This document shows, in pieces, positions 1 to 63,142 of a stretch of 64,000 bases of DNA. Numbering within the stretch: the first letter of the stretch is position 1; each line of letters begins with the position of its first letter. Where the stretch lies: positions 64,001-128,000 of IMG/VR virus record IMGVR_UViG_3300045988_176357. One strand, 5' to 3'. Below the pieces are notes generated by a model. It saw nothing but the letters and a program-made list of their open reading frames with translations. It searched no databases and was not told where the DNA came from. The translations under genes and the position numbers were made by a program. This stretch comes from a virus.

Positions 1-897
1 GGCTGTGACAGCAACGGCAGCGAAGCTATGTACAAGGTAAGGAACGTTGTTCCCAGAGTGCCTGACAAAAAGAGCAAGTTCCGCAAGATCATACTCCAGT
101 CCGGCAGAACACTCATCACATCACCGTGCCACAAGTGGTACATATACAAAGACGACAAGTTCAACCTTGTTCCTGCTTCGTAGCTCAAACAGGGCATGCT
201 TGTTCCAAGAACAGTGTTCCAGACTGTACCTGTAAGGAGTGCAACTGTAGCAGGCAAGCCTGTCACAAGAGAGATAGCAGTCCTTATGGGAAGACTTTGC
301 GCCTCTTTGTAGGTAGTGGGAACAACTGTCAGGTTCTCTTTCGTTCGCGACAGGAACCCTGAAACAGACCAGAGACAGGACATCACAGACGCTCTTGCAC
401 AGCTCGGTGTTGTGAACTACACGATATACACGCACAAATAGCAGACCTGGTGCAACATCAAGGACTGCGTCTTCAGGGACTGGATTGCGTAGAACATCGG
501 TCGCGATTAGCAGCACAAACGCATACCGAAAAGCATGCTCTCACTCGACAGAGGCTATACGAGCATCTTCCTCGATTCCTTCTTCAAGACTCTGGATACA
601 GTCGCATAGGACATCACAGGTGACAACTGGCTGCTCAGGCTTCCCAATCCCACTGTGCGCGACGGTGTTGCGTTCATGCTCACGAAGATCGACACCGATA
701 CCAATTTCAGAGACGCAGTGCTTCCTGATCACAGAATCCACAGAGCACTGCACTTGCTTCCCATACAGAGAGGCAAGCACGATGTCATCCTGTAGCCCAT
801 TGTCAGCATAGAGGAAATGCCGACACCTGGAATGATGATCGACATCGACTGTGACGACAACGTGTACGCAGTTGCGAACGGCATCATCACACATAAC
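1..897 (+). mobile_element. Intein in RpoB (5'-partial); C-terminal splice junction ...VYAVANGIITHN|S at 895-900
   Basis: Block F/G-like DIDCDDNVYAVANGIITHN is followed by Ser and then rpoB extein resumes (SKYGTQAVPLQQRQA). The insertion lies just before the conserved QRQA region. N-terminal boundary is outside the window. Confidence 0.6.
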
Positions 898-3800
898 AGC
901 AAGTACGGAACACAGGCAGTCCCTCTCCAGTAGCGTTAGGCTCCTTTTGTTCGCGCACTTGACTAGCAGTCCGGATAGGACATGCCTACGAGACTCGGAA
1001 GACTCCTCGGCACACAGTGGGCATAGAAGCCAGGTATGGTGAAAGCTGTTCGCAAGGACAGAATCGACATGCTGTACGACGACGGCACGAAGGGATCAGT
1101 GTATCTGTACGACAACTTCCCTGCCAATGCGAAGGGCTGGCTGACCAACTACGTGAAGGTCAAGGCCGGTGACAAGGTTGCTAAGGGGCAGCTGCTGGCG
1201 TCTTCCAACTACACTGACGACAACGGCGTTGCAGCTACAGGCAGGAACCTGCGTGTAGGCTACATGAGCTATCATGGCGCGACGTATGAGGATGCCTGTG
1301 CACTGTCGTAGTCGGCTGCGAAGAAGATGGGCTACACGATCATGTACAAGACAGGCATGGACAAGGACAAGTCCATCCGTACGTCCAAGCAGCTGTACAA
1401 CACCTGGAAGCCAGGACAGTACACAAAGTAGCAGCTGTAGAAGCTGGACGATTTCGGCGTGGTCAAGCCGGGCACTGTTTTGCAACCTGGCGACCCGATG
1501 ATCCTTGGTATCCGAACTACTGAGCCCTCGCCCGGCACACTTGGCAAGAGGATCCTCACCGATGTTACCTAGACATGGTAGCACAGCACACCGGGCACAG
1601 TCACGGACGTGACGAATACCAAGAGCGGCATCAAGGTGTACGCTACCGTCAGCAAGCCACTGTAGGTAGGTGACAAGATGTGCTACGATGAGTAGACGTA
1701 GGTACTGACAGCTGATGGCTGGAAGCGTTTTGCTCAACTCACATTGCATGACAAAGTGTACACGCTCGATCCTGATTCCGATACCATATAGCTGCAGCAC
1801 CCTGTGATGGTACACAGATACAGACATAAGGATCCGATGTACAAGCTCTGCACAAGAGACATCGACCTTATGGTCACTCCCAACCACAGGAACCTTGTCA
1901 GGATACATGCCGCACAGGGACCTGCCAAGTATCGGCTGGTGCAGGCAAGTGAGCATTATGGCGAGCTGCTGTAGATGCGTACAGGTGCGGAAGGTGCTCG
2001 CCGGGATGTGCCCGTGAACTACGCTGCGGACGACGTGTAGCAGTGGGTCGCCTACGACGGCTACGTGTACTGTGCCACTGTGTAGAAGTACCATACGCTG
2101 TACGTGCGCAGGAACGGCAAGGCAGTATGGTCAGGCAACTCTGGCTTCTAGGGCTCCAAAGGCACGGTCGCACAGGTCATCCCTGACGACAAGATGCCGA
2201 GGGACTCGCAGGGCAGGCCGCTGTAGCTGCTGTTCGACCCGCTTGGAATCATCAGTCGCACAAATCCCTCGCAGCTCATGCAGGCAGGACTCGGCAAAGT
2301 GGCAGCCAAGACAGGCAAGCCCATAGTGATGCCTCAGTTCATGCCCAAGGGACAATCAAGGCTCAAGTATGTCAAGGACCTCATGAAGAAGAACAATGTT
2401 CCATGGTCCTAGGACGTGTACGATCCGTAGTCAGGGCGCACAATCAAGAACGTCTTCACAGGCGTCGCCTACTACATGCCTCTCAAGCACCTTGCATAGT
2501 CCAAGATGAGTGCACGAGGCACTGAAGGGTACGATGCATCAGGTGTGCCGAAGTCCGGTGGTGAGCATGGAAGCAAGAAAATAGGACAGCTGTAGAGCAG
2601 CGCTCTGGTCGGACACGACGCCTTCGACTTCCTCACTCAGGACGCCAAGCTCATACGCGGCCAGTCCAACGCCGACTTCTGGCGCTCCATTCGCACAGGC
2701 CAGATACCTGTCGTCCCGGGCTAGCCTCTCGTGCACAAGAAGTTCTTCGCGCACCTGCAGGCTTCTGGACTCAACGTCCGCAGATCCAAGTAGGGCGTCT
2801 CTCTGTTCGCACTCTCCACAAAGGACGTGGACGACATGGCAGGCAACAGATAGCTCAAGTCAACAGACACATACGAGCAGAAGAACTTCAGACCCATCGA
2901 CGGCGGTCTCTTCGGACAGGACATCTTCGGACCCGACGGCATGAACTGGGGCTACATTCAGCTCGACAGCCCTCTCCCGAACCCCGTCATGTAGTAGCCG
3001 CTTGCGCGTCTCCTGCGCATGTCCGACAAGGACTTCCAGGCAGTCGCTCAGGGCAGAGCCACGGTCAATGGCATCTCCAACGCAACATAGATGAAACAGG
3101 CGCTGGCAAAGATCGACCTGTAGAAGGAAGCCCAGCAGTCGCTCGTATAGCTCAAGGATGCACGGCCCTCAAAGAAGGACGCTGCGCTGAAGCGCTATGT
3201 AGCCATTGCCAAGATGCGCGACAACGGTGTTCCTCCTCAGGACTACATGCTGGACAGAATACCGGTGCTGCCTCCCAAGTTCCGCCCGATCACACAGCAC
3301 GGCGGTCTCACAATGGTAGCAGACAGCAACTACCTGTATGCGCAGCTGCTGAACGCAAGGGACGACCTGCGCTAGGCACAGAAAGAAGGACTGCCCGCTG
3401 AGTACATCACCGACGCGAACGCGAAGCTTTACACGAAGTGGAAGGAACTGGTGGGGCTGTACGACCCATAGGACGTGAAGCTGAAGAACAAGTCGGTGAA
3501 GGGCCTGCTGAAGTGGGCCCTCGGCACGAGTCCCAAGCGCTCGGCGTTCGCCACGAAGGTGCTGGGGTCGACGGTGGACACTGTGGGACGCGGAGTCATT
3601 GTTCCCAGTACTAAATTACGATTGAATGAGATCGGGATGCCGGTGGACATGGCGTGGGATGTATATGCGCCTTTTGTGGTGCGCAAGCTGGTGCAGCGGA
3701 ACTACACACCTGTGGACGCCATGAAGATGGTCAAGTAGCGTGTGCCTGCGGCGTTCGATGCACTGCAGCAGGCGGTGAGCGAGCGGCCTGTGGTCATGAA

Positions 3801-5889
3801 CCGCGCTCCCTCGCTGCACAAGCTCAGTCTCATGGGCTTCAATGTGAGGCTGACAAGCGGCAAAGCTATCAAGATCAACCCCTCAATTGTTGTCCCGTAC
3901 GGAGCTGACTTTGACGGAGACTCATGTAAGTCGTTGATAATCATATGGTTACAACAAAAATAGGGCTCTCAGGTAGCAAAAAAGATATATAGAGGCAGTT
4001 AGAATTGGCACTTGACAAATGCGAAATCTGGTGTATATTACCTTCATAATGACAAGGAGCCGCAGCTCCAGAACCAACAATAGAAAGAAGGTAATACAAT
4101 GATTTCCAAAAATGAAAAAGTCTCAGTGATGCCGTATCTTATGGAACTCTCTGAAGTTCCTGTCATCAAAGGATCGGAAGTTGCCAAGTCGCCTACTGTC
4201 ACCGAATGGGATGTTGAGGAAGGCACTTTGGTGAACACCATAGACCCTGCTACAGGTGAGATTGTGTTTGCTCCCATGACAAAGGTATCCAGGCACACAA
4301 ACCTGAAAATGTTCGACGTGAAGTTCGGTATCAGCGGAGCCTATGAGCACATGTCCACAGTGTCTGAGGATCACAGCTTGATCACATATAACAGCACATC
4401 TATGGAACTGGAAAAGACCAGACCTGAAGAAGCCCTCGGCGCATGTGTTCCGATGACCAGATTCAACTGGTGCAACAAGGTTAACGATGAGCAGGGATGT
4501 GCAACTCATATCAACTTCCCGTCTGGTAACTACTCACTGTCCTACGATATGGGTGTCTTCTTTGGCCTCATGGTCGGTGACGGTTGGGTAGCCAGCACAA
4601 GTGCCAACACAAAGGTGGCCCATATCGCTTGCTGCGAAGAGTCCCTGCAGAACTACATATTGGAACTGACAAAGAGCGCGTCTATGCCGTTCACCAAACA
4701 GGCGGCACTATTCAGCTATGCAGCGGATGAACAGAGATTCAGCCAGCGAGACAAGCAGAGATTCACTATCTACATGGATAACGAAGATAAGGCGTTCCTT
4801 GAGAAGCTCATAGGTCATGGTGCCGAGAACAAACATATCCCCTATAAGAGCTTCATGGGAAGCATAGCACACATGATTGGCGTCCTTATGGGTCTGCTTG
4901 CTACAGATGGCGCGGTATCACATACGCCTGGAAGCGGAAACAGAAAGTCAGCTAAGAAAGCTATCATTTACCACACTGTAAGTCCTACACTGAGAGATGG
5001 AGTGCAGGATTTGGCATGCAGGCTTGGTATAAAGACAAGTGTCACGACATACACTGGCACATCTTCTGGAAACACAGCATATGCAATTGTGTTCTCACTT
5101 GAGGACTTTGCTAGACTGTACGATAAGAATCCGACAAGATGTGTGATACCTGTCAGCTATAAGCAGGAAGCTCTTATGCGTATCGTTAACGATGTGCATG
5201 AGAACAATAAAGCGTCGTGCAAGACCACCGTCACTTCTTATGATATAGTGCCGTTCCCTCGCGGACTGTTCTGCGAGTTCAGCTGGGCAAAGATTGTCGA
5301 CATCTCAAGAGACAGTGTCATAGCTGCACGTACCAAAGGCTTCATAAAGAGAAGCGTCGCAAAGCGTATTGCAGATGCTCTTGAGCGTCGCGACTGGTCT
5401 ATCTACAAAGATCCTGCATACCTCAAGAAAGCTGACCAGACGCATCGCACTCCCGCCCAGGCCAAGGCACTTGTGGACAAGTGGATCGCCATGGTACGCA
5501 ACGACGACATCGGCTGGGAAGTCGTGACAGACGTGACTCCGTCCACATGCACTGAGGGATGGGACTGCACAGTGCCTGGACCGTACACCTTCTCGCTCAG
5601 CACAGGAACTATTGTGCAGGACACCGTGAACCTGCACGTGCCTGTTTCACAGGCCGGTATCCGCGACGTGCGCTAGAAGATGATGCCCGAGCACAATCTG
5701 ATCTCAGCGAGAAAGCGCAAGATATTATACGCACCGTAGAAAGCTTATACGCAGGGACTCTATGTAGCCACAAGAATGGGTGAGGCCAAGGACGTGAAGA
5801 CCTTCAACACGCTGCAGGAAGCCAAAGACGCCTACAGAAAAGGCCTCATCGACGTGGATACACCGATACTGATCAAGGAGAAGCGATGA
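1..5889 (+). CDS. rpoB-rpoC: RNA polymerase beta (C-terminal two-thirds, 5'-partial) fused in frame to beta' N-terminal half; TAG read as sense; ends at TGA 5887-5889
   Basis: Frame 1 has no TAA/TGA from nt 1 to 5886 but about 60 in-frame TAGs. Translation matches bacterial RpoB: SKYGTQAVPLQ-Q-R-Q-APFVRA (QRQA motif, both Q encoded by TAG), MSYHGATYEDA (MPWNGYNFEDS), KPLQVGDKM...SGFQGSKGTVAQV (GDKMAGRHGNKGV), LLFDPLGIISRTNPSQLMQAGLG, AYYMPLKHLAQSKMSARG, RPIDGGLFGQDIFGP. It continues without a stop into beta': IPVLPPKFRPI, NRAPSLHKLS, PYGADFDGD, and after the insertion LHVPVSQAGIRDVR...GLYVATRM...AYRKGLIDVDTPILIKEKR. Confidence 0.85.
1681..2139 (+). mobile_element. Mini-intein (153 aa, no endonuclease domain) in RpoB between GDKM and SGFQGSKG
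   Basis: Starts CYDEQTQVLTADGWKRF (Hint block A); block B DLMVTPNHRNLV; block F/G GYVYCATVQKYHTLYVRRNGKAVWSGN followed by +1 Ser. Flanking exteins reconstitute the RpoB motif GDKM|SGFQGSKG. Confidence 0.8.
3922..5622 (+). mobile_element. In-frame intein-like insertion with double LAGLIDADG homing-endonuclease motifs in beta' at the NADFDGD catalytic loop; exact splice junctions uncertain
   Basis: Same frame as flanking rpoC when the three TAGs at 3961, 4000 and 4081 are read through. Hint block B-like TVSEDHSLIT. LAGLIDADG-like motifs GLMVGDGWVAS and MGLLATDGAVS. Extein resumes TVNLHVPVSQ, matching QMAVHVPLS after DGD. Junction residues (S or C at the start, D or N at the end) are non-canonical. 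Confidence 0.55.
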
Positions 5890-6218
5890 CATACGCACAG
5901 GCATACGGACTCACCAAGCAGGCTAACACATAGCAGACTGCGGATAGCGCATTGCAGGATGCCTTCAACCTCGGCGGCCGAATGGGAGGCGCTGTCGGTG
6001 GAGGCACTGCAGGACTTGTAGGCGGAGGTCTTGCAGGCGCCGCGCTTGGGTACAATTTGCCTGACTGGTTCAGCAAGGCACAGAAAGCGGGCAAGCTGAA
6101 CAAGATTCTGGCTGCACTGGGCGGCGGTGTGCTCGGCGCAGGTGCAGGTCTGGTTGCCGGTGCTCATGGCGGTCACTGGATGGGCGGCCGCATCATGGAC
6201 GCAATCTCGAAGCAGTAA
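5886..6218 (+). CDS. Gly/Ala-rich glycine-zipper small protein; ATG overlaps rpoC-N stop (ATGA)
   Basis: ORF MTYAQAYGLTKQANTQQTADSALQDAFNLGGRMGGAVGGGTAGLVGGGLAGAALGYNL...ALGGGVLGAGAGLVAGAHGG, two TAGs, TAA stop. Confidence 0.5.
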
Positions 6219-6278
6219 CGTGCAGCTGGGCCGTACAACTAAGAATCGAAGAACATATACCTAGCAGTTGATGGCATA

Positions 6279-6971
6279 ATGCGTACCTACACACAGATAT
6301 ACAAGCAAGCCAGAGATCTGAGAGATGCAGCAAAAGACGCCCGATGGCGTGCTTAGCTGAAGCACTTTGTGGATACCCTTCCGGATCTGTCACTTATGCA
6401 TCCTGATCTGACTCCGCAGCAGTACGCCGCCAAGGTGAAAGCTTCTCCGCCAGTTCCTTTACAGCCTTTCTCAGCTAAAGTTCTGCGTCCCTATTCCAGT
6501 GCTGCCGGTACTTACAAGCAGAACTTACAGAATGCAGCCATAAATGCCCTTGCGCAGACATAGTCCAGTAATAACAGGTTCGCCGTATCTGCTCCCGATA
6601 GGAAAGGCAGACAAGCTGTTGGAACATACCAGATACGTAGGCCAGCATTGGAACAGCTGAAGAAATGGAAGCTTGTTAAGCCGCATGTTACACAATAGGA
6701 TATTCTGTATGATGCATAGCTGAACAAGACACTAGGACCGCAGTACTTTCAGCGTATAAGTAAAGGCAGCCCATCTCCAGCTGTAGCCTATGCAAGATAC
6801 TTCAGAGGGCCTAATGCATATAAGAATGCTCTGAACAGAGGCTAGCTGCCAAAGGGAACCACGGAATAGGCATGGGCAAATAAGTTCAAGTAGGTACAGA
6901 GATACATGCAGAACTATAACAGGTAGCTGAAGCGCATTCCGGCAACCTCGAAAGGACCTGTGCAGCGATGA
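6279..6971 (+). CDS. Hypothetical protein, weak lysozyme / lytic-transglycosylase-like motifs
   Basis: Frame 0 open 6243-6971 with 9 TAGs. GTYQIRRPALEQL...YDAQLNKTLGPQYF...AVAYARYFRGPNAYKNAL. No catalytic Glu identified. Confidence 0.3.
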
Positions 6972-8272
6972 TCCCAGGGCTCCCCGACAGGCGCAACTAC
7001 GGTGACCTCGCGTCGCTGAAGCCATAGCAGACGTACACATTGCTGCGGCAGCTGCACAATGCACAGCGTGCCGGACGGCACGTGGACTTCCGCATAGGTT
7101 CTCCGTAGCTTGGTCTGTTCAGCTGGGCAGCACCTAAAGACCTTCCGACGCAGGCAGGCCAGAAACGGCTCCTCATATCGCAGCCTCTGCACACGTACGC
7201 ATACAAGGACTTCACAGGTCCCATCTATTCAGCTTATGGGCGTGGCACTGTATAGAAGCTTTAGTAGACGCCTATAGTCATCCTGCAGAACAGCCCTGAC
7301 AAGATCAAGTTCACACGCGCCGACAAGCGCAACGCGCCGGTGTACACAATGATCCGCACGCGCAACGGCAACTGGCTCACGTCCATCGTCAGCGACGACG
7401 CGCCGCCTGTCATCAGGCAGTACGACAAGTAGCACTTCAAAAGCATCTCACTGCAGCAGGCAGCCAATCTACTGGACCTTGGCGCTCAGGCCTATCCGAA
7501 GGCGGACGGCACAGGAGCACTCGCACAGGTGCGCAAGAACAGCATATAGGTGTACGGGATCCGCAAGGACAAGAACGGAAATCTGATACGATACACAGAC
7601 CACATAGGCGGACTCAGGGACATGAAGATCCCTCCGCAGCTTGTAGGCAAGGTATTCCGTGTAGAGGTCACAGGTTAGCAGAATGGCAGACCCATACAGC
7701 CCAATACTCTCTCAGGACTGCTCAATGCTTCTCTGCAGAGGAACATACAGGCACGCAAAGACAATAACATCAATCTGTTCATGTATGCACTTGCTCTTGC
7801 AGACAAGCAGGATCAATATGACAAACAGCAAGTTAACGAGCTTGTCTCCCAGCTGCAGTCTCCGAAGCTGCGTACATTGCCGAAGGTAACAGCACAGTAG
7901 TTCCAGGATCAGCTCAGACAGATGCGTGAGGGTACACATCCCATAACTCAGTAGGGCTTCATAATCCATCCCAAAGGTGGAAGACCGCTCAAAGCTAAAT
8001 TGCTGCAGGATGCAGATGTCATAGTACGTGATATATTCCCTGCATAGACACAGGATGGACAACGCGCAGGAGGATTCACGTACAGCTTGCCTGGACAGTA
8101 GACTGTTGTAGGCAGAGTAGGCACCGGTTTTACACATCAGCAGCTGCAGGATATGCTGCAGCATCCATAGCAATACACAGGCAGGACAGCAAAGATACAT
8201 GCGATGTCTCAGTATCCTTCAGGTGCATACAGAGCTCCTGCCTTCATATCTTTCAGAGCGGAAGGAGATTAA
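6968..8272 (+). CDS. ATP-dependent ligase-like nucleotidyltransferase
   Basis: Frame 2, ATGA overlap with upstream stop, about 20 TAGs. Motif I AYPKADGTGA (KxDG); NINLFMYALALAD; QGFIIHPKGG (motif IV-like); RPLKAKLL (motif V-like); PAFISFRAEGD (motif VI-like). Confidence 0.5.
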
Positions 8273-8617
8273 ATGCCCATTCATCAGAACGAAGACGGTA
8301 CCTGGCAGTGGGGCAAGTCAGGTAAGAAATACAAGAACAAGCAGGACGCAATAAAACAGATGCAGGCTATCTTCGCTTCCGGTTACAGAGAACCTGGGCA
8401 ACGCAAGAAAGCCGGGCTTACCTACATGTCTGCGTACCTGATTAAAAGAGCTGGTGGCGGTTCCTTCCAGGACTACATGAACTCCAATATTCCTGTGGAA
8501 AATGTGGAGCAGAGTCCGCAAAACAATGTGAAACAGGAACCTGAGAAACCTGCACAACAGCCGCCGACCCAGCAGCTTAACAGGCTTACGGGAATCTCTT
8601 TCTAGGAAATCAAATAA
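8273..8617 (+). CDS. Small hypothetical protein (MPIHQNEDGTWQWGKSGKKYKNKQDAIKQMQAIFASGY...)
   Basis: ATG immediately after ligase TAA; one TAG read-through at 8606 extends it to TAA 8615-8617. Confidence 0.5.
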
Positions 8618-8630
8618 GGACCTTATTAAT

Positions 8631-8969
8631 ATGACTTACATCGAAGCCTACAATATGTATAAGCAGGCTGCTCAGGTGAATGCTCCTGCTGCACATCCTT
8701 CTGTAACACCATCCGTTGCCACGAAACCTGCATTTGGTCAGTCGTATGTTAACGGCGGTTCAAAAATGCCTGACCTGCCGGGCACACGTACAGCAGTCAA
8801 AGGTGATACACCGTATCTGTACTGGACGCAGCTCGGCGGGAATAAACATATGCCGTGGCAAAAATGGCTGGGTCAGTTTCTGAAGGATAATCAGCTGAAA
8901 GCGGACGCCAAAGGCAGAGTTCTCCTGAAGCCAGGTCAGAACTATATGCTTGGCCCTGGAATTGAATAA
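8631..8969 (+). CDS. Hypothetical protein (112 aa)
   Basis: Standard ORF without TAG, TAA stop. Confidence 0.45.
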   Translation: MTYIEAYNMYKQAAQVNAPAAHPSVTPSVATKPAFGQSYVNGGSKMPDLPGTRTAVKGDTPYLYWTQLGGNKHMPWQKWLGQFLKDNQLKADAKGRVLLKPGQNYMLGPGIE

Positions 8970-8980
8970 TTGGAGTGACT

Positions 8981-9832
8981 ATGAGCTTTAAAGACATTTT
9001 CAAAGATATGAACAAGCAGGCGGCTTCGATGCTGACACCTTAGGCCATGCAGGCAGCGGCTGTGCCGCCTGAAGGTACTCCGCCTGCAGGTGCACCTATG
9101 GGAGGTGCTCCGATGGATCCGTCTATGATGGGTGCTCCGGCCGGTATGCCTGTGGATCCGGCGATGGCAGGCGCTGCTCCTGCAGGTGCTCCAATGGATC
9201 CGGCAATGATGGGTGGAGCTCCTATGGGGCCTGGACCTGATCCTGCCGGTGCGCCTGGAATGCCTGGAGCATCCGGAGCGTGGATGACTGATCCGATGTT
9301 CCTTGACTTCCTTATGCAGTCAGGTTTCCAGATCGATCAGGTTGGCAACGTAATCGATCCTAATGGACAGCCTATGGATCCTGCTATAATGGATCAGCTC
9401 TACGCTTAGTTTCAGGCACAGATGGGTGGAGCACAGCCAGACGTACAGGGAGCTCCCGCTGAAGGTGCACCTGCATAGCAGCCGCCGATGGAGCTGCCTT
9501 AGGAAGTGCTCAATCAGGTTGCAGGAATTGTGCAGGATGTTATCGACAGCTCTCTGGATGAGAAACTTTCCGCACTGGAGAAGAAGATATCTGCTTTCGC
9601 ATAGAAGCTCGATACCTTGAAGACCATGCTGGACGATATCCTTATCGGTAACACCAACCAGGATTCGCTTAACAAGTCCTAGGAAGCTTCCATTGACTCA
9701 CAGCTGTAGAAAGATCTGCGTTCAGCACAGCAGGTGGATGTGCAGTAGCCTGGAGGAACAGAACAGCTGCTTGCACCTGCTGCGGCTGTTCCTGCGTCCG
9801 GCAGCATATTGTAGCTTATGAGAGGTGCTTGA
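8981..9832 (+). CDS. Pro/Ala/Met/Gly tandem-repeat protein with coiled-coil-like C-terminus
   Basis: Frame 2 checked codon by codon. Repeats GAPMGGAPMDPSMMGAPAGMPVDPAMAGAAPAGAPMDPAMMGGAPMGPGPDPAGAPGMPGASGAWM, 14 TAGs, TGA stop. Confidence 0.6.
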
Positions 9833-10998
9833 TGGAAGTGTCCAGAAACATGAAGATTCTCGCAAAGCTTGCAAGCATAAATAAAGAAGCGCAGGGCAAT
9901 CCGATGCTCGTGTCTTCCCTTATCGGTGCCGGTGCTGGAGGACTTGCAGGAGACCTCACTTCACAGCTGCTGTGGAAGAAGCCGACTAAGACGCAGCGGA
10001 TTCTGTCTGCATTGGTCGGCGCCGGTCTTGGTGCAGGAACTGGCGCTGCTGTTACAGGTTCATTCGGACACAAAGCTGTATAGAATATTCCTGCGAGATT
10101 GCAGTCTATGTATTAGAATGCTATCGGCACAGTGTCAGGCAAATTGCCCTCCAAAGAGGACTTTGCATCCATGTCTCCTACAGCGAAAGCTATGTATGGC
10201 AGCACCAATACAGGAGATAAAGCTGCTGACAGACTAGGATCTGTTGTCAACACTCTGAAAAAGTCAGTAGTCGGATAGAATGACAAAGGCAGCGGTGTTA
10301 TAATTCCAGCACAGTTGGCAGCAGGAGGTATTGGCGGAGTCTTCGGCTGGAAAGGTGCTGTGTAGGCCCTTAACAGGCAGGGCAGACGAATACAGCTTAT
10401 AAAGGCTCTGGAAGATAAAGCAGGTGCTAATCCTGCGTTGTGGCGAGCTGCAGATATCTTGAAGATTTTCAAAATAAAAGGCGGCAATCCTGTTACTAAA
10501 CTTATCGATTAGATACAGGAAAGCTCTAAGCTTACAACGTCACCTCGTGCATATAAAAATAACCTTGCCAGTATAGTTCGGAATTTCCATAAGAGGAATG
10601 AAGCCAGTAAGGCTGCAGGTATGGGAGCTATAAGTGATACAATCCGGCAACGGTATTATGGAAAGTACAGGAACAAAGATCTTGATGCCTTCAGGCTGAA
10701 GGGCAGACAGAATGCCACAGCATTAGAGACCTTGTTCGGTTTGTCGAAACGCAGAGCCGGGCAGGTATTCGACAACACAGGTATCAAGACCGGTATATCC
10801 GCTGACGAAGCTGCCAAACTCCGGAATATGGTGACAAATCGTCCTCTTGGAAAGATGAAAGGTGCGGCTGGACTGCTGGCAGGTATCTTGTCTGCTGCTG
10901 CGTCGGCAGGTGGAGCCGGATATATAGGCAACGCACTTGCAGGTAACAATGCACGGTATCAGCAGGCGCTGACAAACCTGTAGAATGCTTATAAGTAA
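9832..10998 (+). CDS. Gly/Ala-rich hydrophobic (glycine-zipper) protein, possibly membrane or virion associated
   Basis: Frame 1 checked 9832-10998. Start ATG overlaps upstream TGA (TGATG). Segments LVSSLIGAGAGGLAG, ILSALVGAGLGAGTGAAV, AAGLLAGILSAAASAGGAGYIG. 8 TAGs, TAA stop. Confidence 0.55.
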
Positions 10999-13319
10999 CA
11001 GGTGCTGAATTGGCTGTCACCACATTAGGCAGATAGGTAATCAAACAAGCGCTTCCTTAGAAGTACAGGAGCTTCGTTGACTAGCCCCTCACAAAGGCTC
11101 GCCAATAGAAGCTCACTACGCAGCTTGCCAAGGACAATCCATAGGCTTACATAGACATCCTGCAGAAGCTGAATGCCATCGCGTAGTCGACTGTATCTAC
11201 GTACGGCAAAGACACTACCATCACTCTGGATGACATAGATGCTGGAGAGAATGTGCGCAAGATGCATGCTAAGCTCCAGTAGCTGATACGTACTGTTGTG
11301 AACAGGAAAGATCTCACTCCGTAGCAGAAGTAGCAGAAGGTCATCTAGCTGGGTTACAAGTACACTGCACTGATGAAGGACCTTGGATTAAAGGATGCTC
11401 AGTAGCGTCGTACAGGTATTGCAAATCAGATTGCATCTGGATCCCGTGGCAACCCTGTACAGCTTATGCAGCTTCTTGTCGGCGACATGCAGATGCGTGA
11501 TGCCGCCAACAGGGACATCCCTTATCTTGCTACTATGCCGTATGTGGACGGTGATTCGCCTATGTCCTACTGGGCATCGAGCATGTCCGGTAGAAAATCA
11601 ACTTACGATACGCAGGCTGCTACAGGCATGGCCGGTTACCTGAACAAACAGGCAACCAATGTTATTCAGGCAACACCTATAGCTATGCGAGACTGCGGCA
11701 CTACCAATACAGGTGTGCCGGTATCAGCTACAGATCCTTAGAATGTAGGCTCCATACTGCTGCGCCCATGGAAGAACCATCCTGCAGGAACACCTGTCAC
11801 GTAGGAGATGCTGGACTAGGCTTAGTAGGGTGACGAGATTGTGATCCGCAGCCCGAACACATGCAAGGCTCACAACGGTGTGTGCGCTATGTGCTCAGGC
11901 ATCCAGGAAAACGGCAAGCTGCCTGCTGTAGGAAGCTACGTGGCACTGAATGCCATGAAGTCCTTCATCTAGCCGCTTACGCAGGCCGGTGTAAGCTGTC
12001 TGCATCCTGACACAAAGGTAAGTCTGGCTGAAGGTGGATATAAAAGAATAGCAGATATACAGATAGGCGATACTGTAATAGGTTGCGACATAGCAGGTAC
12101 AACTACACCTGTAAAGGTCACCAATGTATTCCATAATGGAATTCAGCCTGTATACAGAACTGTATCTGTTACATAGTCTGGTAAGCACTTGTAGCTCTTA
12201 TCCACACTTACACATAAATGCCTTATGCTGATCTAGGATGCACAAGTTCCAGCACTGCTGCCTATAGGGACACAGGCTAAGAAACGCTATATAGTACTGT
12301 CAGATAGGTCTGAGTAGCAAAAAGCTTAGATAATACAGCAGACATTCGTAGGCGATATATAGACCATAGATATCTAGGTTGACCATCCTGATCATCTGTT
12401 CCAACTTGTTGATTATCAAGTGGTAGCAAATTCGAAGCATGGTTCTGGTATGGGCGGCAAAAAGAGCTAGGACCCAGACGGCTAGGACCAGCCTACAGGG
12501 TTCGACTCCATAGCGCGCATGCTCCTTGTGCCCTCTACATTCCCTGGTGGCGCAGTGCTCTCTCAGGTCGATGGTCGCGTGTCATCTGTACGTCCTGCTC
12601 CGCAGGGAGGCAACTACATTACAGTCGGCACCAATACGGTATATGCGCCACGCGTACGTACAGTAACAGTAAAGCCCGGCGACATCGTGTAGGCTGGAGA
12701 CACCCTTACCAATGGCGTGCCTAATCCCATGTAGGTAGTCAAATACAAAGGTATCGGCTAGGGCAGACATTACTTCACGAACAAGCTTTTCGAGCTGCTT
12801 CCGAAATCCGGCGCAGGCACAGCAAGACGTAATGTGTAGCAGTTCGCCCGCGCCCTCATCAACAAGGTTCGCATAACATCCGACCAGGGTTTCGGCGGCT
12901 ATTATCCTGGCGACATTGCAGATTACGACGATATAGCGTAGAAATGGAGACCCAGAGAGGACAGCAAGATGCTGAACCTCAAGGAAGCCACAGGAAAGTA
13001 CCTGTAGGAGCCAGCACTGTATTACAGCATAGGAACAAGAATAACACCCAAGGTAGCCAAGAAACTGCAACAGTACGGTTACCAGCAGGTGAATACCAAT
13101 TAGAATCCTCCGCCGTTCTAGGCGAAGTTCGTAAGCTCCAAAGCGTTCTCTACTACGTAGAGGCGCTGGTTGCCCAGACTTAACGGAGAACGGCTTAAAG
13201 AGGCTATCTTCGACGCTGCAAGAACTGGAATAACTGACAGTTATGACAGCCCTTCATTCGTCGACAAGCTTATCATAGGCCCCTATAATCCGGCAAACAT
13301 TAAACCAGCAGGAATATGA
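10995..13319 (+). CDS. rpoC: RNA polymerase beta' C-terminal half (rpoC2-like); start codon uncertain (no ATG near ORF opening; TTG at 11010 possible)
   Basis: Frame 0 open 10995-13316 with TGA stop. AELAVTTLGRQVIKQALP (TTVGRAILW), GSRGNPVQLMQLLVGDMQMRDAANRDIPYLATMPYVDGDSPMSYWASSMSGRKSTYDTQAATGMAGYLNKQATNVIQATPIAMRDCGT (ADSGARGS...DCGT region), CAMCSGIQENGKLPAVGSYVALNAM (CAHCYGRDLARGH), GDTLTNGVPNPMQVV, C-terminal LKEAIFDAARTGITDSYDSPSFVDKLIIGPYNPANI. Confidence 0.8.
11997..12431 (+). mobile_element. Mini-intein (145 aa) in beta' C-terminal half after the GEPGTQLT-equivalent motif
   Basis: CLHPDTKVSLAEGGYKRIADIQIGDTVIG (block A), LLSTLTHKCLML (block B), TIDIQVDHPDHLFQLVDYQVVAN|S (block F/G, +1 Ser). 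Exteins FIQPLTQAGVS | SKHGSGMGG. Confidence 0.8.
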
Positions 13320-14791
13320 AGTGTATGTCTAACAATCTCATCATCGACGAAGGCTATCTGCGGAAAACAGCAGCGAATTAGCCTGGCTAGGGGCCGTCCT
13401 TTGAACAGCAGTTCGGCATCCTTGCGAATGCCCAGATCACCGACAAGTACCCCAGCCTCGGCAACTATCTTGTAGCTGCTCAGCTTCTTGACAAGAGTGA
13501 CGACAACTCGTTCGCCGTGTGCGCTGTTGTGTACAAGCTCGGCAACAACTTCATCTACGTGCCTGCTGTGTTCCGCAATGGAAAAATATTCACCGGCTAG
13601 ATCATGGAAGTTCCGTCGCTGCAGAGAATGCTGCCGTTGTCGGATGCATGGATGAGCTGGGTGAAGAACAAGGACATCGGCGGATAGGGCTAGCTAATTC
13701 CTTCATAGCTCTCCAGGCTGTACGGATAGAATGCATCTTCTGCACGCAGCAGAGAGCCTGTCGATCCGCTCATGAAAACAGCGTCTGTGAACAGTGTCTC
13801 TGTTATGGATACGGCATTGAAGCTCGGCAAGAAGGCTTCCTAGAAGCTCGTCGACATGTTCACCAACATTGACTATCTGAATGCCGCCTTCAAGTATTAC
13901 AGCCCTGAACAGATCGACTCATTCGCAAAGAAGGCTGCACAGATGTTCCCATAGACATAGCCTGTTTAGATCATCTCTGTGCTCGACAAGAAAGCTGCTC
14001 TCCTTACATAGGAACAGAAAAAGAATCTGTATGCCGACGGCTTTGTGGTCAAGTAGGGCAATAAAGTAGACTGGGGTCCCGCGTAGGATTCCATTAAGGC
14101 TGTCGAATATAAGAATCTTCGCTAGGCCTTCGTTAAGCCGCAGAAGTCCTGCATGTGCCAGGTGCTGACTCGGACCGGATAGCTGCAGGATGTAACTTAT
14201 CTTGTAGTTGAGGGTAACTGTAACAGAGATGTCTGTTGCTGCTGTGATTAGTGGGATCCCGGTTCCAGATATAAACGTGGAGTCAGTACTGTTAAACACG
14301 TTGCTCCGGCCAAAGACTCTCCATTCTTCGGCAACAGATAGTACAAGAATGTAATAGTTCAGGACGGCCAGTATCTTACTGTGTAGAGTGTTCCGTGTGT
14401 TCTGCTCAGCAGTATCAAGGATATCGACGTTTCCGCTACAGGTAAGAGCATATAGGGTCTCAAATAGATTCCGTACAACAGCATCCTGCTGACAAAAGAT
14501 GGCTACACGATGTTCGGCCTCAGAGGAACGAAGCAGCCGAACGGAGATTTTGTCTCCTATAATCTCACAGTTCACATTACAGAAGATGACAACCTCAAGC
14601 AGCCGCTGATTCTTAAAGAGTATATTGAAGTACCGAAAGGCAGCCGCATCATCTTCCCCGCAGGCAACTACAATACTGACGGCACACCTAAGCAGGATAA
14701 ACTGCAATAGACACACAAGTCTGTGTACGTGGCTTATGGAGATCTCGGCAGAGCCATCGACGCTTTTGATTCCAAGTACTACAGCAAGCTG
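13316..14791 (+). CDS. Hypothetical protein (about 491 aa, about 30 in-frame TAGs)
   Basis: Frame 2 checked line by line; ATG overlaps rpoC stop (ATGA); TGA stop at 14789-14791. Confidence 0.5.
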
Positions 14792-20030: not shown

Positions 20031-20212
20031 CACTCTCTATGTGAGATAGATAATCCCAACAAAAAGGTAATATACCCATGAGTATGCTTAACAAGAAAGC
20101 CGCTTTTCTCCACGATCTGCTTGTTCAGTCCGGAGCGCTGCACAAAGTTGCAGGCGGCGAATAGATTACAGAGAAGAAGCTCGATGCTCCGCAGCCCACT
20201 ATCGGCGACAAG

Positions 20213-21333: not shown

Positions 21334-21345
21334 AGGAGCGCACAA

Positions 21346-25284: not shown

Positions 25285-25680
25285 ATGCGGTACACAAGAA
25301 CCTAGCTGGCTAACCACTATAACGTCACAAAAGGAAAGCTTCGGCGTATATTGAAAGCGCTGCAGCTTCAGCCTGTGTAGGTTGAACGTACTGCTACAGG
25401 GCGTCCTGTGTTCTATTATGCCGACAGCACTGTGTTGTAGATCGACAAATACCTGGATGCTCTTATGCAGAAGAAACAGCAGTAGCTTGTAAAGTGCTGT
25501 ATATGTAAGCAGAGTGTCAGTAAGAGCAGTATGATCGGCGGCAGATGCCAGATGTGTTATGTGAAGAAGTGCTGTGCACCTATTATGTACGGAAAGTAGT
25601 TCTGGAACAGGAAGGTAAACGCACAGACTGTCAGCACAGCTATTCGTTATCTGCAGTCAATGTTACCTGGCTCCACGTGA
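25285..25680 (+). CDS. Putative HTH DNA-binding protein with C-terminal Cys-rich zinc ribbon
   Basis: LANHYNVTKGKLRRILKALQLQPVQVERTATGRPVFYYADSTV then CCICKQ...CQMCYVKKCC; frame 1 checked, TGA stop. Confidence 0.4.
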
Positions 25681-39387: not shown

Positions 39388-41069
39388 TGACGTTATACAC
39401 ATCCGGCTCATTTGTACTTTGTGTCAAGGTGTCCGGAGCTGTAAAGTATTACGCTGTAAAGAACTTCTATCTTCGCAAGGCTAAAGGCGCAATAACTCAG
39501 TGCCGGGTGAGCCTTATGGATGTTACCTGGCAGGTGGAAGTCAGAAATCTGTCTACATATCCGAAACTGTCGGCATTGGCATAGCTGTATAACAGTGCAT
39601 GTCAGCCTGAAACTAAACCCATGTAGTGCCAGCTGCTGTAGTACAACTCCAGATAGAACAGTGGACAGCCTGTACAATGGTTTACAGGACGTGTGTGCGT
39701 CGTAACTCCGGTTCTGGCATAGCGCCCTGGAATTACATCTTAGTATACATGTTTCTGCATGGGAAAGGCGTGCTAGCTGATGTTCTCCTATGTCAGCGAC
39801 TATAAGTATGTGGATGCTAAGTCTGCAAACAATGTGCCATAGCTGTAGAAAAACGGCCTTATAGGAGCCAACGCACAGGCAACCAATATATTCAGCACTG
39901 AAAAACTCGATACAGCGTTGCTGATTTCCAACAGCGGCCAGAGCATATAGGCCGACACCGTAGATCAGCTTTTTACCAAAGCATTCAATTACTTGCAGTA
40001 GATGCGGGCAAAACTGGCTCTTTTCGCATAGACGCCTACTATAGACTTATCCAAATACATAACCTCTCAGTACAAGATAAGTTCTGTAATCAAGTAGGCT
40101 ATCAAGGCGCCTGTAGACTTAGGACATAGTAATCCATATCTTATAGCCTTTGATCAGATGTTCGCATCAGGTATCGATAACAGGCAGCTCATCGATGCTA
40201 TAATGACTACTCTGGCCGGTTAGCGGTTCCTGACAACTGCGCCTGCTTAGCGAACACTTCCCGACGCTTAGGACAAATTGTTTATCATCCCTAATTATGT
40301 ATTGCCTGTTTAGACTCAAGATGCCATCATAACACCGGAAGACATCAATCTTGTACAGGTTACCGCCAATCCGTTGTCCCATTTAAGTATACCTGATAAA
40401 TTGTTTGTCAACCTGACGATGCTGTCGGCTTTCGATATGGGAACAAGATTGATACAGAATATACCTGGATTATATGGTGAGTACGAAGCGGTTACACCAG
40501 CCTCCAAGATAAAGCAGGCAGGTGCTCCGTGGTGGTTACTTACCATAGCTGTATAGAAGTCCAGATTCAAAACATATAAAGCCGATATGAAGAACATTCC
40601 TGTTGGTCAGTCGGTTGTCACATAGATATAGTAGAACGCAAGCTGGGCAGACGGAGCTAAACAGATGTTTGATACATATGCAAAGACACTGTATTTCAGT
40701 ATGTATGCTGCCTAGAAGCAAGCTACTGTGAGTCTGCTGCCGACTGATAAAGCTAAGGATATGGACAGGTATATAGGTAAGTCCATAGCTTTACAGCTTC
40801 CTTTAGATCAACAGAATCTGAATGACAGGAAATACAGTAAATTCTTCGGTGTTCTTGATTCAGTTACATATTAGTACGGATGCTCTACATCACCTCAGCA
40901 GTCGTCATATCTGACAATAACGGCAAATGTGACGGCGCTGACTCCATAGAGCTCTGCCTTCGCCAAGGCTATATTTCAGGATTAGCGGACACCTCTGCTC
41001 TATTAGAAAAGCCTGGCTACATCTGATATGTACGATTACAATAACAGCTCTGATTACAGTGGTTTAGCG
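39384..41069 (+). CDS. Hypothetical structural protein (561 aa)
   Basis: Frame 0 checked line by line; ATGA overlap with upstream stop; about 45 TAGs; TGA stop. Confidence 0.5.
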
Positions 41070-41080
41070 TGAGGTTTAAG

Positions 41081-41913
41081 ATGCCGGGTATATTTGAACA
41101 AATTAAAGGTCTGAATACTTCTTCTCAGAATATTGCGCCTAAACCTGTAAAGCAGCCGCAAGAAGATATCGTACAGACCATAGCCGATTGGCAGAAGAAG
41201 AGCACGCCTGAAACCACCAAACAGATATTGGACTTCATCAGGCCGACTATCGACAGTGCGCTTCATACCTATACACCTGGACAATAGAACACATTCAGAA
41301 TAAAAGCTACATCCTATGCCTTGCAGAGTCTGCGTAACTACGATGTGACAAAGAAAGTGTCTCCAAAGACCTTCGTGTTTTCAAACCTTCAAAGACTCAA
41401 CAGACTCAGAAGGTAGCGTTAGAATATCATTCATATCCCTTAGAATCAGGTCTATATGAAACAGATGCTGGACAATAAAACAGCTTAGCTGTAGAGTGAC
41501 CTGGGAAGACCGCCTACTGATTAGTAGCTGAGCTAGGCTCTGTATATCTCCAAGCGCAAACTGGATAAGCTGCGTTAGCAGTCCTCTGTTACCATAAGTT
41601 AGACAATGTCTCAAGATCCGTAGGGACACTAGATGCTTGGAGCGTCTGATGTCACGGACAGGGATTACTATAATTATGTCTACTCATCTGTATCTCCTGT
41701 AGATAAAAAGATAATGTAGTGGACATCCGGGTACAAAACAAAGCCGCTGTCCAATAATCAGATAGCTGAGAAACTGCATATATCACCTGGGGCTGTATCA
41801 CAGAGAAAGAACAGGATACAGCAGCTCATGGGTTAGGTCAGAGGTCTCGTATGAGAAAACTTATACAGGAAGGCGGAGAAAAGCCAACCGGCTGCTCATT
41901 GCAGCAGCACGAT
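41081..41913 (+). CDS. Sigma-70 family sigma factor, TAG-rich (late?) copy
   Basis: Frame 2 checked. Region 4.2-like HTH LSNNQIAEKLHISPGAVSQRKNRI preceded by VTDRDYYNYVYSSVSPVDKKIM; region-2-like N-terminal segment; 23 TAGs; TAA stop. Confidence 0.6.
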
Positions 41914-61335: not shown

Positions 61336-61366
61336 GCTTTACTGTAACAAATGAAAGGAATAAAAG

Positions 61367-61627: not shown

Positions 61628-61663
61628 CCAACACATATACGAAATAACTGAAAGGAAAGACCC

Positions 61664-61960: not shown

Positions 61961-62364
61961 TCGTTATCAGTCGTCTTTATGTCTCCGGACTTCCTTTAGA
62001 TAAACTCGAGCAACTGGCAGATGAAATCAGCCACAAAGACTTCACAGACGGCTGTGTCTTCGCATGCTCTGTCCACAAGGATGCTGCTAGGATGTACATA
62101 GACACCTTTGAAGGCGTCGCTACCGACCAGATGGACGATGATCTCAACGAGATTGGCAGACTCGCGCTGAATTATGGTTGCCGCATTGCAGGCAAAATCT
62201 TCCAATTTGGTGAATTTGCAGTATGGTCCGGAAACTTCAATGATGTGAATGAGATCGAATGGGTTGACATGACTCTGTTCATGGAACTGCCCACACACGA
62301 GCTCAGAAAACTTGCAACATATGTAGGTGCCGACAATGTCGTACAAGCTCAACACAAATGTTAA
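61957..62364 (+). CDS. Hypothetical early protein (135 aa)
   Basis: ATGA overlap with upstream stop; TAA stop. Confidence 0.45.
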   Translation: MIVISRLYVSGLPLDKLEQLADEISHKDFTDGCVFACSVHKDAARMYIDTFEGVATDQMDDDLNEIGRLALNYGCRIAGKIFQFGEFAVWSGNFNDVNEIEWVDMTLFMELPTHELRKLATYVGADNVVQAQHKC

Positions 62365-63136
62365 GCCGCTTACTGCTGCACAGGAAAAAGAGGCATTCGC
62401 AGACTTCCATTCCCAAGATACAAAGAAAAGCGAGGCTGCTGCCGACCTGCTGCTTTCCGCTAACTCAAAATTGATCTTTAAATTGGCGCAGGAATTCAAG
62501 CACCATCCCATTCCTTTCGACGATCTCATAGCCGAAGGTTGTGTAGGTCTTATGGTAGCGGCTGGGAAGTTCGACATCAACAGAGGAACACGCTTCATTA
62601 CATATGCAGCATGGTGGATAAAACAGCGGATGCGCAAAGCTGTGGAAACACAGAGCCGCACAGTGCGAGTACCTGCAAAGACACATGTGACCAAGTCCAG
62701 ACTCCTCAGGATGCAAGACCAGCTGAGAGACGAACTAGGTTACCAGCCGGACATCTATCAGCTGTCCGAGTACACGGGCATGCCTGAATCCAAGATCAAG
62801 ACGCTGCTGAACAGCCTTGGGCACGGTGTGTCTGTAGATGCGGAATCAGAAGACACTGAAATGTCCAACCTGGAGAAGGCACGTGTAGCCATTGCCGATG
62901 ATCTTGGTGACCTGCTGGACGACTCCGAGCTGCTGGACGAGATGCGCAAAGCTTTCAAGCGCCTTCCTAAACGTGACCAATTCGTGCTTGGTATCAGGTA
63001 TGGACTTGATGGCGGCGGCGTATCCACACTGGAGGAAGTCGCGCAGGAAGTCGGCAGGTGCAGAGAACGATGCAGACAACTTCAGGAAGAAGCCTTAAGG
63101 AAGCTTCGCAGAGAAATCAGAAAACGAACAAGTTGA
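62336..63136 (+). CDS. Sigma-70 family sigma factor (TAG-free early copy); start ATG 62336 or GTG 62327
   Basis: Region 2 DLIAEGCVGLMVAAGKFDINRGTRFITYAAWWIKQRMRKAV; region 3 RTVRVPAKTHV; region 4 LPKRDQFVLGIRYGLDGGGVSTLEEVAQEVGRCRERCRQLQEEALRKLR. Confidence 0.85.
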   Translation: MSYKLNTNVKPLTAAQEKEAFADFHSQDTKKSEAAADLLLSANSKLIFKLAQEFKHHPIPFDDLIAEGCVGLMVAAGKFDINRGTRFITYAAWWIKQRMRKAVETQSRTVRVPAKTHVTKSRLLRMQDQLRDELGYQPDIYQLSEYTGMPESKIKTLLNSLGHGVSVDAESEDTEMSNLEKARVAIADDLGDLLDDSELLDEMRKAFKRLPKRDQFVLGIRYGLDGGGVSTLEEVAQEVGRCRERCRQLQEEALRKLRREIRKRTS

Positions 63137-63142
63137 GGCACT

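Follow-up and report, generated by a model that had tools for sequence, protein, structure and literature searches.

Positions 64,001 to 128,000 of the IMG/VR virus record IMGVR_UViG_3300045988_176357, a stretch of 64,000 nucleotides (nt) called the window below, open within a gene for the core of a bacterial-type RNA polymerase (RNAP), and the rest of that enzyme is encoded by a second gene further downstream. Both genes are interrupted by inteins and are rich in in-frame TAG. Read with translation table 11 the first 14 kb falls into many short open reading frames (ORFs), and with stops limited to TAA and TGA the same DNA consists of tightly tiled plus-strand genes. Frame 1 is then open from nt 1, at the window edge, to the TGA at 5887-5889, a run of 1962 codons with 46 in-frame TAG, and in a strain 95-97% identical (L012) the gene starts about 3.1 kb further upstream. 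The polymerase parts are as follows (a slash in a quoted peptide marks an intein boundary).

1..5889, plus strand: precursor ORF of a beta-beta'N fusion polypeptide, 5'-truncated by the window, TGA stop.
2770..2940, plus strand: in-frame beta/beta' junction, the beta' zipper region following the end of beta (MAFFT with E. coli and Salmonella phage Arash).
3901..3921, plus strand: catalytic Mg-binding motif GADFDGD, the N-extein edge of intein 3.
5623..5886, plus strand: last beta'N extein segment, TVNLHVPVS...ILIKEKR.
11010..13319, plus strand: beta'C gene (bridge helix, trigger loop and C-terminal modules), TTG start, 35 in-frame TAG, TGA at 13317-13319, Pfam Rpb1_5.

An earlier note on this DNA, made from the letters alone, had RpoB running into beta' in a single frame, and this is borne out. 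One ORF matches RNA_pol_Rpb2_6 (Rpb2 domain 6, PF00562, 8e-40), Rpb1_1 and Rpb1_2 (4e-22), and in a MAFFT alignment of the window RNAP with E. coli RpoB plus RpoC and Arash gp206 plus gp216, beta homology stops at about amino acid (aa) 926 (nt ~2778) and beta' homology continues in the same frame. No hidden frameshift is needed between the two, and the best 120 of 1,774 database homologues are all fused single proteins of 1,100-1,650 aa, nearly all with Rpb2 and Rpb1 domains. The zinc finger of beta' (E. coli C70/C72/C85/C88), also correctly reported as missing, is gone through a 33-residue deletion between P978 and D979 (nt 2934/2935) at a position matching that in Arash, so that no four-Cys N-terminal zinc-binding domain is present. 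What the note did not see is the inteins, including the one that interrupts the catalytic NADFDGD motif: some 1,020 of the 1,962 codons of the ORF belong to them, and the RNAP that remains after removal of the insertions is 943 aa. Against solved bacterial beta' chains this part gives phmmer E values of 1e-43 to 1e-50, in keeping with the claim that conservation is well above that of the phiKZ-type RNAPs. The beta lysine motif, once its intein is taken out, reads VGDKMSGF[TAG]GSKG, aligned to E. coli GDKMAGRHGNKG. On the RpoC side there are matches to PF00623, PF04997 and PF04998, GADFDGD at nt 3901-3921 and the trigger-loop motif [E]PLTQ...SKHG, and Protein Data Bank beta' chains are matched at E 1e-50 by the fused gene and 1e-26 by beta'C; Pfam, phmmer and these matches all place the ORFs in the RpoB/RpoC families. 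The fused gene and the next ORF share an ATGA start/stop overlap at 5886-5889. No relative was confirmed when IMG/VR viral contigs were scanned with the 88-aa piece of C-extein.

The second gene lies in an ORF at 10995-13319 that is matched by Pfam Rpb1_5 and, as the C-terminal half of beta', by solved chains at up to 1e-26; its phage counterparts are Arash gp216 and gene 0264 of Vibrio phage D69. Its first start codon is TTG 11010, with AGGTG 5 nt upstream. A start at GTG 10995 was considered and rejected, as that codon reads GTA, and so the 'AE' of the beginning formerly quoted as 'AELAVTT' is untranslated. A second site resembling a sigma-70 promoter at 11/12 positions, TCGACA-N17-TATAAT, is at 13261-13289, just before the gene at 13316.

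The fused ORF ends and beta'C begins in alignment columns that coincide with those of Arash, at about E. coli beta' 559/560, and with no conserved block missing between the halves beta' has indeed been split without loss. The likening of this site to the cyanobacterial gamma/beta' split holds in part: the two are nearby, in the same inter-module region, but the phage split is not at the cyanobacterial one, being about 25-60 residues upstream of it. Measured on the 625-aa cyanobacterial gamma, the fused ORF reaches residue ~562, and the opening ~25 residues of phage beta'C lie ahead of residue 1 of cyanobacterial beta' in the alignment and correspond to the end of gamma; this places the phage split between the catalytic barrel and the bridge helix rather than at the rpoC1/rpoC2 boundary.

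The separation of the halves by some 5 kb of other genes is likewise confirmed, at about 5.1 kb with seven ORFs that include ligase-like and Gly-zipper-like ones.

5886..10998, plus strand: seven intervening ORFs between the RNAP halves, namely:
5886-6218, plus strand: Gly-rich ORF.
6279-6971, plus strand: SLT transglycosylase ORF.
6968-8272, plus strand: LigD_N plus ligase OB-like ORF.
8273-8617 and 8631-8969, plus strand: two further intervening ORFs.
8975-9832, plus strand: Pro/Ala/Met-rich ORF.
9829-10998, plus strand: Gly-zipper-like ORF.

The ORF at 6968-8272 (plus strand) combines an N-terminus like the LigD 3'-phosphoesterase (2.4e-08) with a C-terminus like the OB part of ATP-dependent ligases (phrog_114, 6e-13); an adenylation domain was not detected in it. 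The two-gene separation is kept across relatives and the content of the spacer varies, as does its length, which is 0.6 kb in D69, 4.8 kb in Arash, 5.1 kb in the window and 7.4 kb in the relative L005 (67% identical), where beta'C again lies downstream.

At least four inteins are present in the window RNAP genes, three in the fused gene and one in that for beta'C. Their boundaries are set exactly by relatives with empty sites, and Pfam and NCBIfam intein models match. Intein 3 is described further on; the others are:

1..897 (partial), plus strand: intein 1, C-terminal 299 aa, ...GIITHN/SKYG (Pfam Intein_splicing, family alignment).
1681..2139, plus strand: intein 2, 153-aa mini-intein, VGDKM/CYDEQT...VWSGN/SGFQGSKG, in the beta GDKxxGxxGxKG motif.
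11997..12431, plus strand: intein 4, 145-aa mini-intein, QAGVS/CLHPDTKV...YQVVAN/SKHGSG, in the trigger loop (Pfam Hint, NCBIfam).

All three have the Hint domain, Cys1, a block B TxxH and a C-terminal Asn followed by Ser, Thr or Cys, and their removal restores the host motif. Intein 1 is inserted after RLLMG of beta, which corresponds to E. coli ANRALMG/ANMQRQ; it is shared with P0001-P0017, and it ends THN/S here and begins MG/CLHP in relatives. Intein 2 (C...TPNH...SGN/S) is homologous to a full-length LAGLIDADG intein at the same site in P0038, and intein 4 has the features C...LTHK...VAN/S. Protein splicing would remove the inteins of both precursors. In the best 120 of the 1,774 hits the fused gene has at least seven different intein sites, and in the 95-97% identical strain (at the DNA level; European Nucleotide Archive scaffold of 191,943 bp) the precursor is open for 3,542 aa with about eight inteins. 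Two extra inteins of that strain, L012/L013, are at the sites GIISR/TNPS and GEHG/SKK, where the window is empty (2259/2260 and 2570-2626). In its N-terminal region inteins are just 4 residues apart (...VWLGN/TAEK/CYRADT...), and compared with window positions 6225-6227 it has an extra ~1.1 kb after the fused gene. A further intein, GINRN/CFVAGTMVV...PFVVHN/CDGW, with Hint and Intein_splicing matches, is in 18099-20027 (plus strand), where the host is a 642-aa structural-module protein matching D69 gene 0270.

The third intein interrupts the NADFDGD motif (GADFDGD here) at the catalytic center of the enzyme, and it carries signals of its own.

3922..5622, plus strand: intein 3, 567 aa, DFDGD/SCKSLIIIW...TGTIVQD/TVNLHVP, Hint plus LAGLIDADG (Pfam LAGLIDADG_3).
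3961..4098, plus strand: AT-rich in-frame linker with TAG at 3961, 4000 and 4081 and no TAA or TGA.
4012..4039, plus strand: sigma-70-type promoter TTGACA-N16-TATATT, 11/12.
4099..5676, plus strand: TAG-free internal ORF of 525 aa in the standard code, comprising the intein 3 body and 17 aa of C-extein and ending at the first TAG.

Removal of intein 3 restores DFDGDTVNLHVP, as in the intein-free relative P0001, whose empty site reads DFDGDTVNIHVP. The element has a Hint fold, an N-terminal nucleophile and a terminal Asp followed by Thr. Residue 1 is Ser here and Ser or Thr in the homologues P0127-9, and among 18 homologues the S, D and H of the block B sequence SEDH and the end VQD/T are invariant. 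Its endonuclease is a predicted LAGLIDADG homing endonuclease (PF14528, 8e-08; motifs GLMVGDGWV and GLLATDGAV), in which the second acidic Asp is invariant and the first at least 90% conserved in the same 18 homologues. The structure examined is an AlphaFold (AF2) model of P0128, a contiguous homologue 54% identical to intein 3, with a predicted local distance difference test (pLDDT) score of 69. In it a strand and helix directly after DFDGD are followed by a disordered linker that holds the conserved Met and then by the Hint plus LAGLIDADG body, for which Foldseek finds TliVMA (E 1e-16) as well as PI-PfuI, PI-SceI and I-DmoI. The catalytic site of P0098 (39% identical) is likewise occupied by a homologous intein, with an N-extein of DFDGN rather than DFDGD, where splicing would leave the third catalytic Asp as Asn.

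The 177 nt before ATG 4099 (3922-4098) have a GC content of 0.37. The promoter there is the joint best of nt 1-13500, tied with 13261-13289, and the Shine-Dalgarno sequence AAGAAGG is 8 nt before the ATG. The product of 4099-5676 is 100% identical to database protein P0121; its homologues are 40-71% identical with a conserved Met, and those for which the upstream part is available have Ser or Thr at residue 1 and then a short hydrophobic strand. A comparison of six loci, the window and five homologous ones, gave TTGAC(A/T)-N16/17-TATAnT, at one and the same position, together with a Shine-Dalgarno sequence and an ATG that keeps the frame of the N-extein, in 6/6, the window spacing being 16. 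AAAATAGGG occurs repeatedly in the linker of L008 and does not recur as a motif in the window. One candidate interpretation, with the 177 nt non-coding and the insert a free-standing endonuclease gene, was rejected because homologues keep the stretch in frame with the strand that begins at Ser/Thr1; nor is the stretch an intron by the Rfam test, which gave no match to a group I or II intron or ribozyme.

The gap between the two parts of the element is bridged differently in different relatives. In the standard-code L007 and L011 the upstream ORF stops at a TAA 20 or 34 codons after DFDGD and more stops follow, so that by sequence the element there is a truly split gene and would give a split intein. 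In four TAG-recoded genomes the linker has 2-7 TAG and never TAA or TGA, and P0127-9 are fully contiguous proteins. The stops between the parts in the window are three TAG only, which are sense when the host gene is translated. Codon choice sets the body of intein 3 apart. In the exteins TAG makes up 67% of codons of the Glu type (30 TAG vs 15 GAR; the counting of TAG with GAR is taken up below) and in inteins 1, 2 and 4 the share is similarly high, but the body of intein 3 has 0 TAG vs 29 GAR (P ~1e-14), and the same is found in three other recoded genomes. Because the body is TAG-free, the endonuclease part can be made alone while TAG still stops.

From this arises the alternative that fares best, that the window element is also a split intein, its N-part ending at, for instance, TAG 3961 and its C-part starting from ATG 4099, with trans-splicing of three products. 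The genuine split at the same place in L007 and L011 speaks for it, as do the promoter, Shine-Dalgarno sequence and Met kept by all loci, the enrichment of TAG in the recoded linkers (2-7 per 46-59 codons) and the modelled N-piece, whose strand and helix of about 17 aa approximate the 20-aa N-fragment of L007. The N-extein, though, has dozens of TAG and so is made only under readthrough, when the linker TAGs are read too, and, as long as TAG goes undecoded, the ORF from ATG 4099 ends at TAG 5674 after 17 aa of C-extein. Moreover, none of the four recoded genomes (4/4) has a TAA or TGA in its linker, for which the chance is about 0.07 each, suggesting selection for a continuous frame. A split intein in the window is accordingly judged unlikely.

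The meaning of TAG is the other respect in which the locus departs from expectation. The earlier note translated it with code 15, i.e. TAG as glutamine, and this has to be abandoned since in three gene families (the fused RNAP gene, beta'C and terminase) the residue opposite TAG is a conserved Glu rather than Gln; the residues printed as Q at TAG are most likely E. At 30 RNAP extein TAG sites, 14 close standard-code relatives have E in 60% and Q in 4%, with E in 14/14 at 11 of the sites, and the pattern is also seen with more distant relatives. By the same comparison the GAR codons of the window meet E in 56% and its CAR codons Q in 26%. In beta'C a single codon is particularly telling.

11970..11972, plus strand: TAG codon where the beta' motif GEPGTQ has its Glu, the window reading SFI[TAG]PLTQ and that Glu being conserved in E. 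coli, Arash and D69.

For the large terminase (TerL), 21 TAG sites compared with 58 standard-code homologues give E 39%, D 23% and Q <4%, and at four of these sites E is invariant or nearly so (55-58/58). Codon usage across 44 window genes agrees: GAR is 1-2.5% in TAG-rich genes and 5-13% in TAG-poor ones (r between TAG and GAR of -0.55), CAR codons do not compensate for TAG (r = +0.27), and CAA is almost unused. Relatives translated with TAG as Q come out at 7% Q and 2% E, compared with a family norm of 3% and 5.5%, and L005 has the same correspondence of TAG with E. TAG thus probably specifies glutamate, not glutamine, in this phage lineage, as judged from alignments and codon usage, and the database translations of the lineage with Q at TAG (P0001-3, P0139-52) are probably wrong. 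Those translations are one of two points in favor of glutamine. The other is that Borges et al. report for phages with a code differing from that of their host just TAG to Gln and TGA to Trp, code 15 being the sole amber reassignment. Set against the site comparisons, the GEPGTQ codon, the GAR depletion and the skewed composition that a Q reading gives, glutamine is very improbable. No report of TAG to Glu in a phage was found in the literature searched, absence there being no proof of absence.

TAG-poor or TAG-free genes at 20078-21334, 22405-23418, 23521-24309 and 60973-63448 are inside or beside the TAG-rich block, and include those for a sigma factor, the major head protein (with 1 TAG) and a 418-aa protein that is very rich in Glu and Ala (12.9% GAR). 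Recoding is for this reason not simply a matter of all structural genes. The sole tRNA in the window is tRNA-Met(CAT) at 26932-27007 (minus strand), in a poorly coding stretch, at positions ~25-27.9 kb, that is flanked by structural genes.

With TAG read as sense, the notion that the RNAP genes are decaying, non-functional remnants has little left to it. It is prompted by the fragments that table 11 gives for the region, by the 1.7 kb that break NADFDGD and by the DFDGN at the junction in the distant relative P0098; but the frames are broken by TAG only, with no TAA or TGA in 1,962 + 769 codons, TAG stands at conserved Glu positions, each of the insertions is an intein in frame, and taking it out restores a conserved motif exactly, and the 95-97% identical strains keep the whole 3,542-aa frame open. 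Decay is hardly credible.

The genes are phage genes of long standing. Their bacterial-type character and phage setting, both claimed in the earlier note, are upheld, the window also having terminase, major head protein and sigma factors:

59116-60936, minus strand: large terminase, PF05876.
22405-23418: major head protein, matched by phrog_2522 only.
62336..63136, plus strand: sigma-70-family factor with regions 2, 3 and 4, TAG-free, homologous to Arash gp196 and D69 0246.
41069..41854, plus strand: weak sigma-like protein (regions 3/4 helix-turn-helix, HTH), TAG-rich, in the structural module.

A tblastn search of deposited phages found Salmonella phage Arash and Vibrio phages D69, D181 and D148, with 99% coverage and ~30% identity. 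A large protein database gave 1,774 hits in total, possibly including cellular RpoB and RpoC, of which the best 120 are 35-68% identical and on contigs of up to 235 kb. Identity is 24-29% to E. coli and 24-31% to bacterial RNAP, the beta' chains of Actinobacteria, Firmicutes, Deinococcus-Thermus, Proteobacteria and Cyanobacteria give similar scores of 151-173 bits, and the nearest relatives are phage proteins of the same architecture. The low identity to bacterial RNAP together with the like scores of several bacterial phyla points to an old phage lineage and rules out a recent capture, an option that the earlier note had left on the table. The least likely of all the explanations considered is in fact that a host rpoB-rpoC operon was recently captured, fused and fragmented in the phage: the sequence homology with the bacterial subunits is clear and exceeds that of the phiKZ-type RNAPs by far, and it is met by just 24-29% identity to E. 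coli, by the absence of any favored bacterial phylum, by a best 120 of 1,774 hits that are all phage-type fused proteins, and by a junction, zinc-finger deletion and split site common to Arash (30% identical), with the same two-gene arrangement in D69.

The fused and split layout is consequently not new in itself, being already known from the genes of Arash, the Vibrio phages and metagenomic homologues. Fusion, a split at ~560, a separate downstream beta'C and a phage sigma factor are all found here as in Arash; the locus is a further member of the Arash-like phage RNAP family, and the fusion-plus-split layout is ancestral to the large phage lineage that Arash typifies. In Arash (OQ632216; BMC Microbiol 2023), gp206 (1,525 aa, annotated 'RNAP subunit beta') corresponds to the beta-beta'N fusion and gp216 (606 aa), 4.8 kb downstream, is beta'C; sigma factors are encoded, and the zinc-finger deletion, split and junction are in the same alignment columns as in the window. 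D69 has the same pair as 0261 and 0264, 0.6 kb apart, and sigma factors are present. The genes of both Arash and D69 adjoin structural genes, as in the window, but they are only ~30% identical to it, use the standard code and lack inteins (1,525 and 1,527 aa). Rhizobium phages (RHph_TM30) were considered as a further case of the arrangement and rejected, as only beta' matched and the beta' gene is unsplit. The passages seen of the Arash paper label gp206 and gp216 simply beta and beta', with fusion and split unmentioned there (PMC10585845). They also give mass spectrometry of the virion, with Gp206 the most abundant and Gp216 and the sigma factor Gp10 present (PMC10585845). Virion packaging is thus shown for Arash and is a prediction for the present phage. 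The HTH protein of 41069-41854 and another small one, WhiA-like, at 53181-53894 (plus strand) in the late block may be comparable to the virion-packaged Gp10. No description of this fusion and split was found in the literature searched, absence there again not being proof.

Other viral and cellular polymerases are more distant comparisons. The metagenomic mReC tailed phages, of up to or above 200 kb, have beta and beta' alignable with cellular RNAP that form a deep clade sister to Bacteria (Weinheimer & Aylward 2020, PMC7481178); that paper applies no fusion or split to mReC and mentions no inteins, sigma factors or recoding. Major capsid protein and TerL of mReC belong to PF07068/VOG11186 and PF03237/VOG01069, in contrast to phrog_2522 only and PF05876 in the window, and on the different TerL family the window may belong to an RNAP-bearing lineage other than mReC. 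The jumbo-phage RNAPs of phiKZ and AR9 also consist of beta and beta' without alpha or omega, have beta' split after the catalytic double-psi barrel, and in their virion form transcribe early genes (PMC7598289). Compared with the window they are very divergent, in 4-5 pieces with beta also split, unfused and without sigma-70 homologues; tblastn at E<=1e-5 gave no Pseudomonas (phiKZ-type) record, either in its count by organism or among the 30 matches listed. In cyanobacteria and plastids beta' is likewise split between the catalytic domain and the bridge-helix module, as rpoC1/rpoC2, with the cyanobacterial split at about E. coli beta' 610-620 and the phage one at ~559/560. Helicobacter and Wolbachia have natural in-frame rpoB-rpoC fusions. 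In such cellular fusions beta' is complete and its zinc finger is retained, unlike in the phage fusion.

The intein 3 homologue shares its Hint plus LAGLIDADG fold with PI-SceI, PI-PfuI and TliVMA, and intein 3, like homing-endonuclease inteins, lies in the best-conserved motif of an enzyme that is essential. Naturally split inteins with a very short N-fragment are known from phage metagenomes, of the AceL-TerL and VidaL type. The N-fragment of L007 and L011, 20-34 aa and then a stop, is like theirs. What distinguishes intein 3 from known split and homing-endonuclease inteins is that the endonuclease domain is kept in the C-fragment, that there is an internal promoter and ribosome-binding site, that in recoded phages the halves are bridged by a TAG-only linker, and that the termini are Ser/Thr1 and Gln-Asp rather than Cys1 and His-Asn. 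Recoded gut phages, in which amber is sense mainly in structural genes (Borges et al. 2021/22; Peters et al. 2022, PMC9523058), resemble the present one also in that some genes are TAG-free, here those of the sigma factor and the intein endonuclease, and differ from it in the amino acid, Gln rather than Glu. The TAG-recoded lineage itself probably comes from human gut metagenomes, to go by sample names. What is unusual about the locus is its intein load, the contiguous-to-split series of the NADFDGD intein with its own signals, and the amber-to-glutamate code.

Taken together, the observations make it probable that the phage owns a two-polypeptide RNAP core made from spliced precursors, one of which has an early gene within a late gene in the form of intein 3, with TAG as Glu. 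The first polypeptide would comprise beta and beta'N through the Mg-binding double-psi barrel, without the zinc finger, and the second the remaining beta', in which bridge helix and trigger loop lie. The covalent beta-beta' link may stand in for the alpha-dimer assembly platform, and promoter recognition would presumably be by phage sigma-70-family factors. With its genes in the TAG-rich late/structural block, the enzyme would be made late and, by analogy with the proteomics of Arash virions, probably be packaged and injected for early transcription. The precursors would lose their inteins by protein splicing. Intein 3, with its own promoter, Shine-Dalgarno sequence and Met, could have its endonuclease made early and home into intein-free alleles, while the full precursor would be translatable only once TAG is decoded, when the linker is read through and cis-splicing becomes possible. 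A broader proposal, of a TAG=Glu lineage of ~190 kb gut phages in which the code switch gates the intein, with a trans-spliced active site in the standard-code relatives, is tentative, with a little less than an even chance of being right.

Several points weigh against the joint reading and need to be kept in mind. Neither ARAGORN nor Rfam gave a suppressor tRNA or tRNA(CUA) in the window, nor was there one in L005-L014 (10 loci). The termini of intein 3 are non-canonical, with Ser1, a poorly conserved strand, a linker of ~60 aa and a Gln-Asp rather than His-Asn end, which makes its splicing efficiency uncertain; the model is of a homologue 54% identical, and is of moderate confidence at the N-terminal strand (pLDDT ~65). 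The count of promoter-like sites over the whole region is not above chance, so that the argument for the internal promoter rests on positional conservation. Packaging, splicing and promoter use are all predictions. With 64 of ~192 kb seen, alpha, omega or a second RNAP may lie elsewhere; among the ~38 of ~60 window ORFs scanned there was no Pfam match to RNA_pol_A/L or omega.

The window also has a free-standing GIY-YIG homing endonuclease gene (PF01541, 1.4e-08) at 25631-26089 on the minus strand, opposite to its neighbors and with TAG codons.

The presence of about eight inteins in one gene, varying between strains 95-97% identical, points to very active intein traffic in gut phages. The NADFDGD element, with contiguous, TAG-bridged and truly split states that each have their own promoter, is a natural series for the origin of split inteins and a source of very short N-fragment inteins for protein engineering. 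If TAG is glutamate, database translations of the lineage (P0001-3, P0139-52 and clusters with hundreds of members) would be wrong at 3-6% of residues, and the rule that phage amber goes only to Gln would fail, with a bearing on the tRNA/synthetase pairs that are open to hijack by phages. The fused and split RNAP is a minimal bacterial-type polymerase, alpha-less and sigma-dependent, for which Arash and the Vibrio phages are cultured models, and now that the architecture is recognized, assembly without alpha and the start of infection by a virion-delivered holoenzyme become testable.

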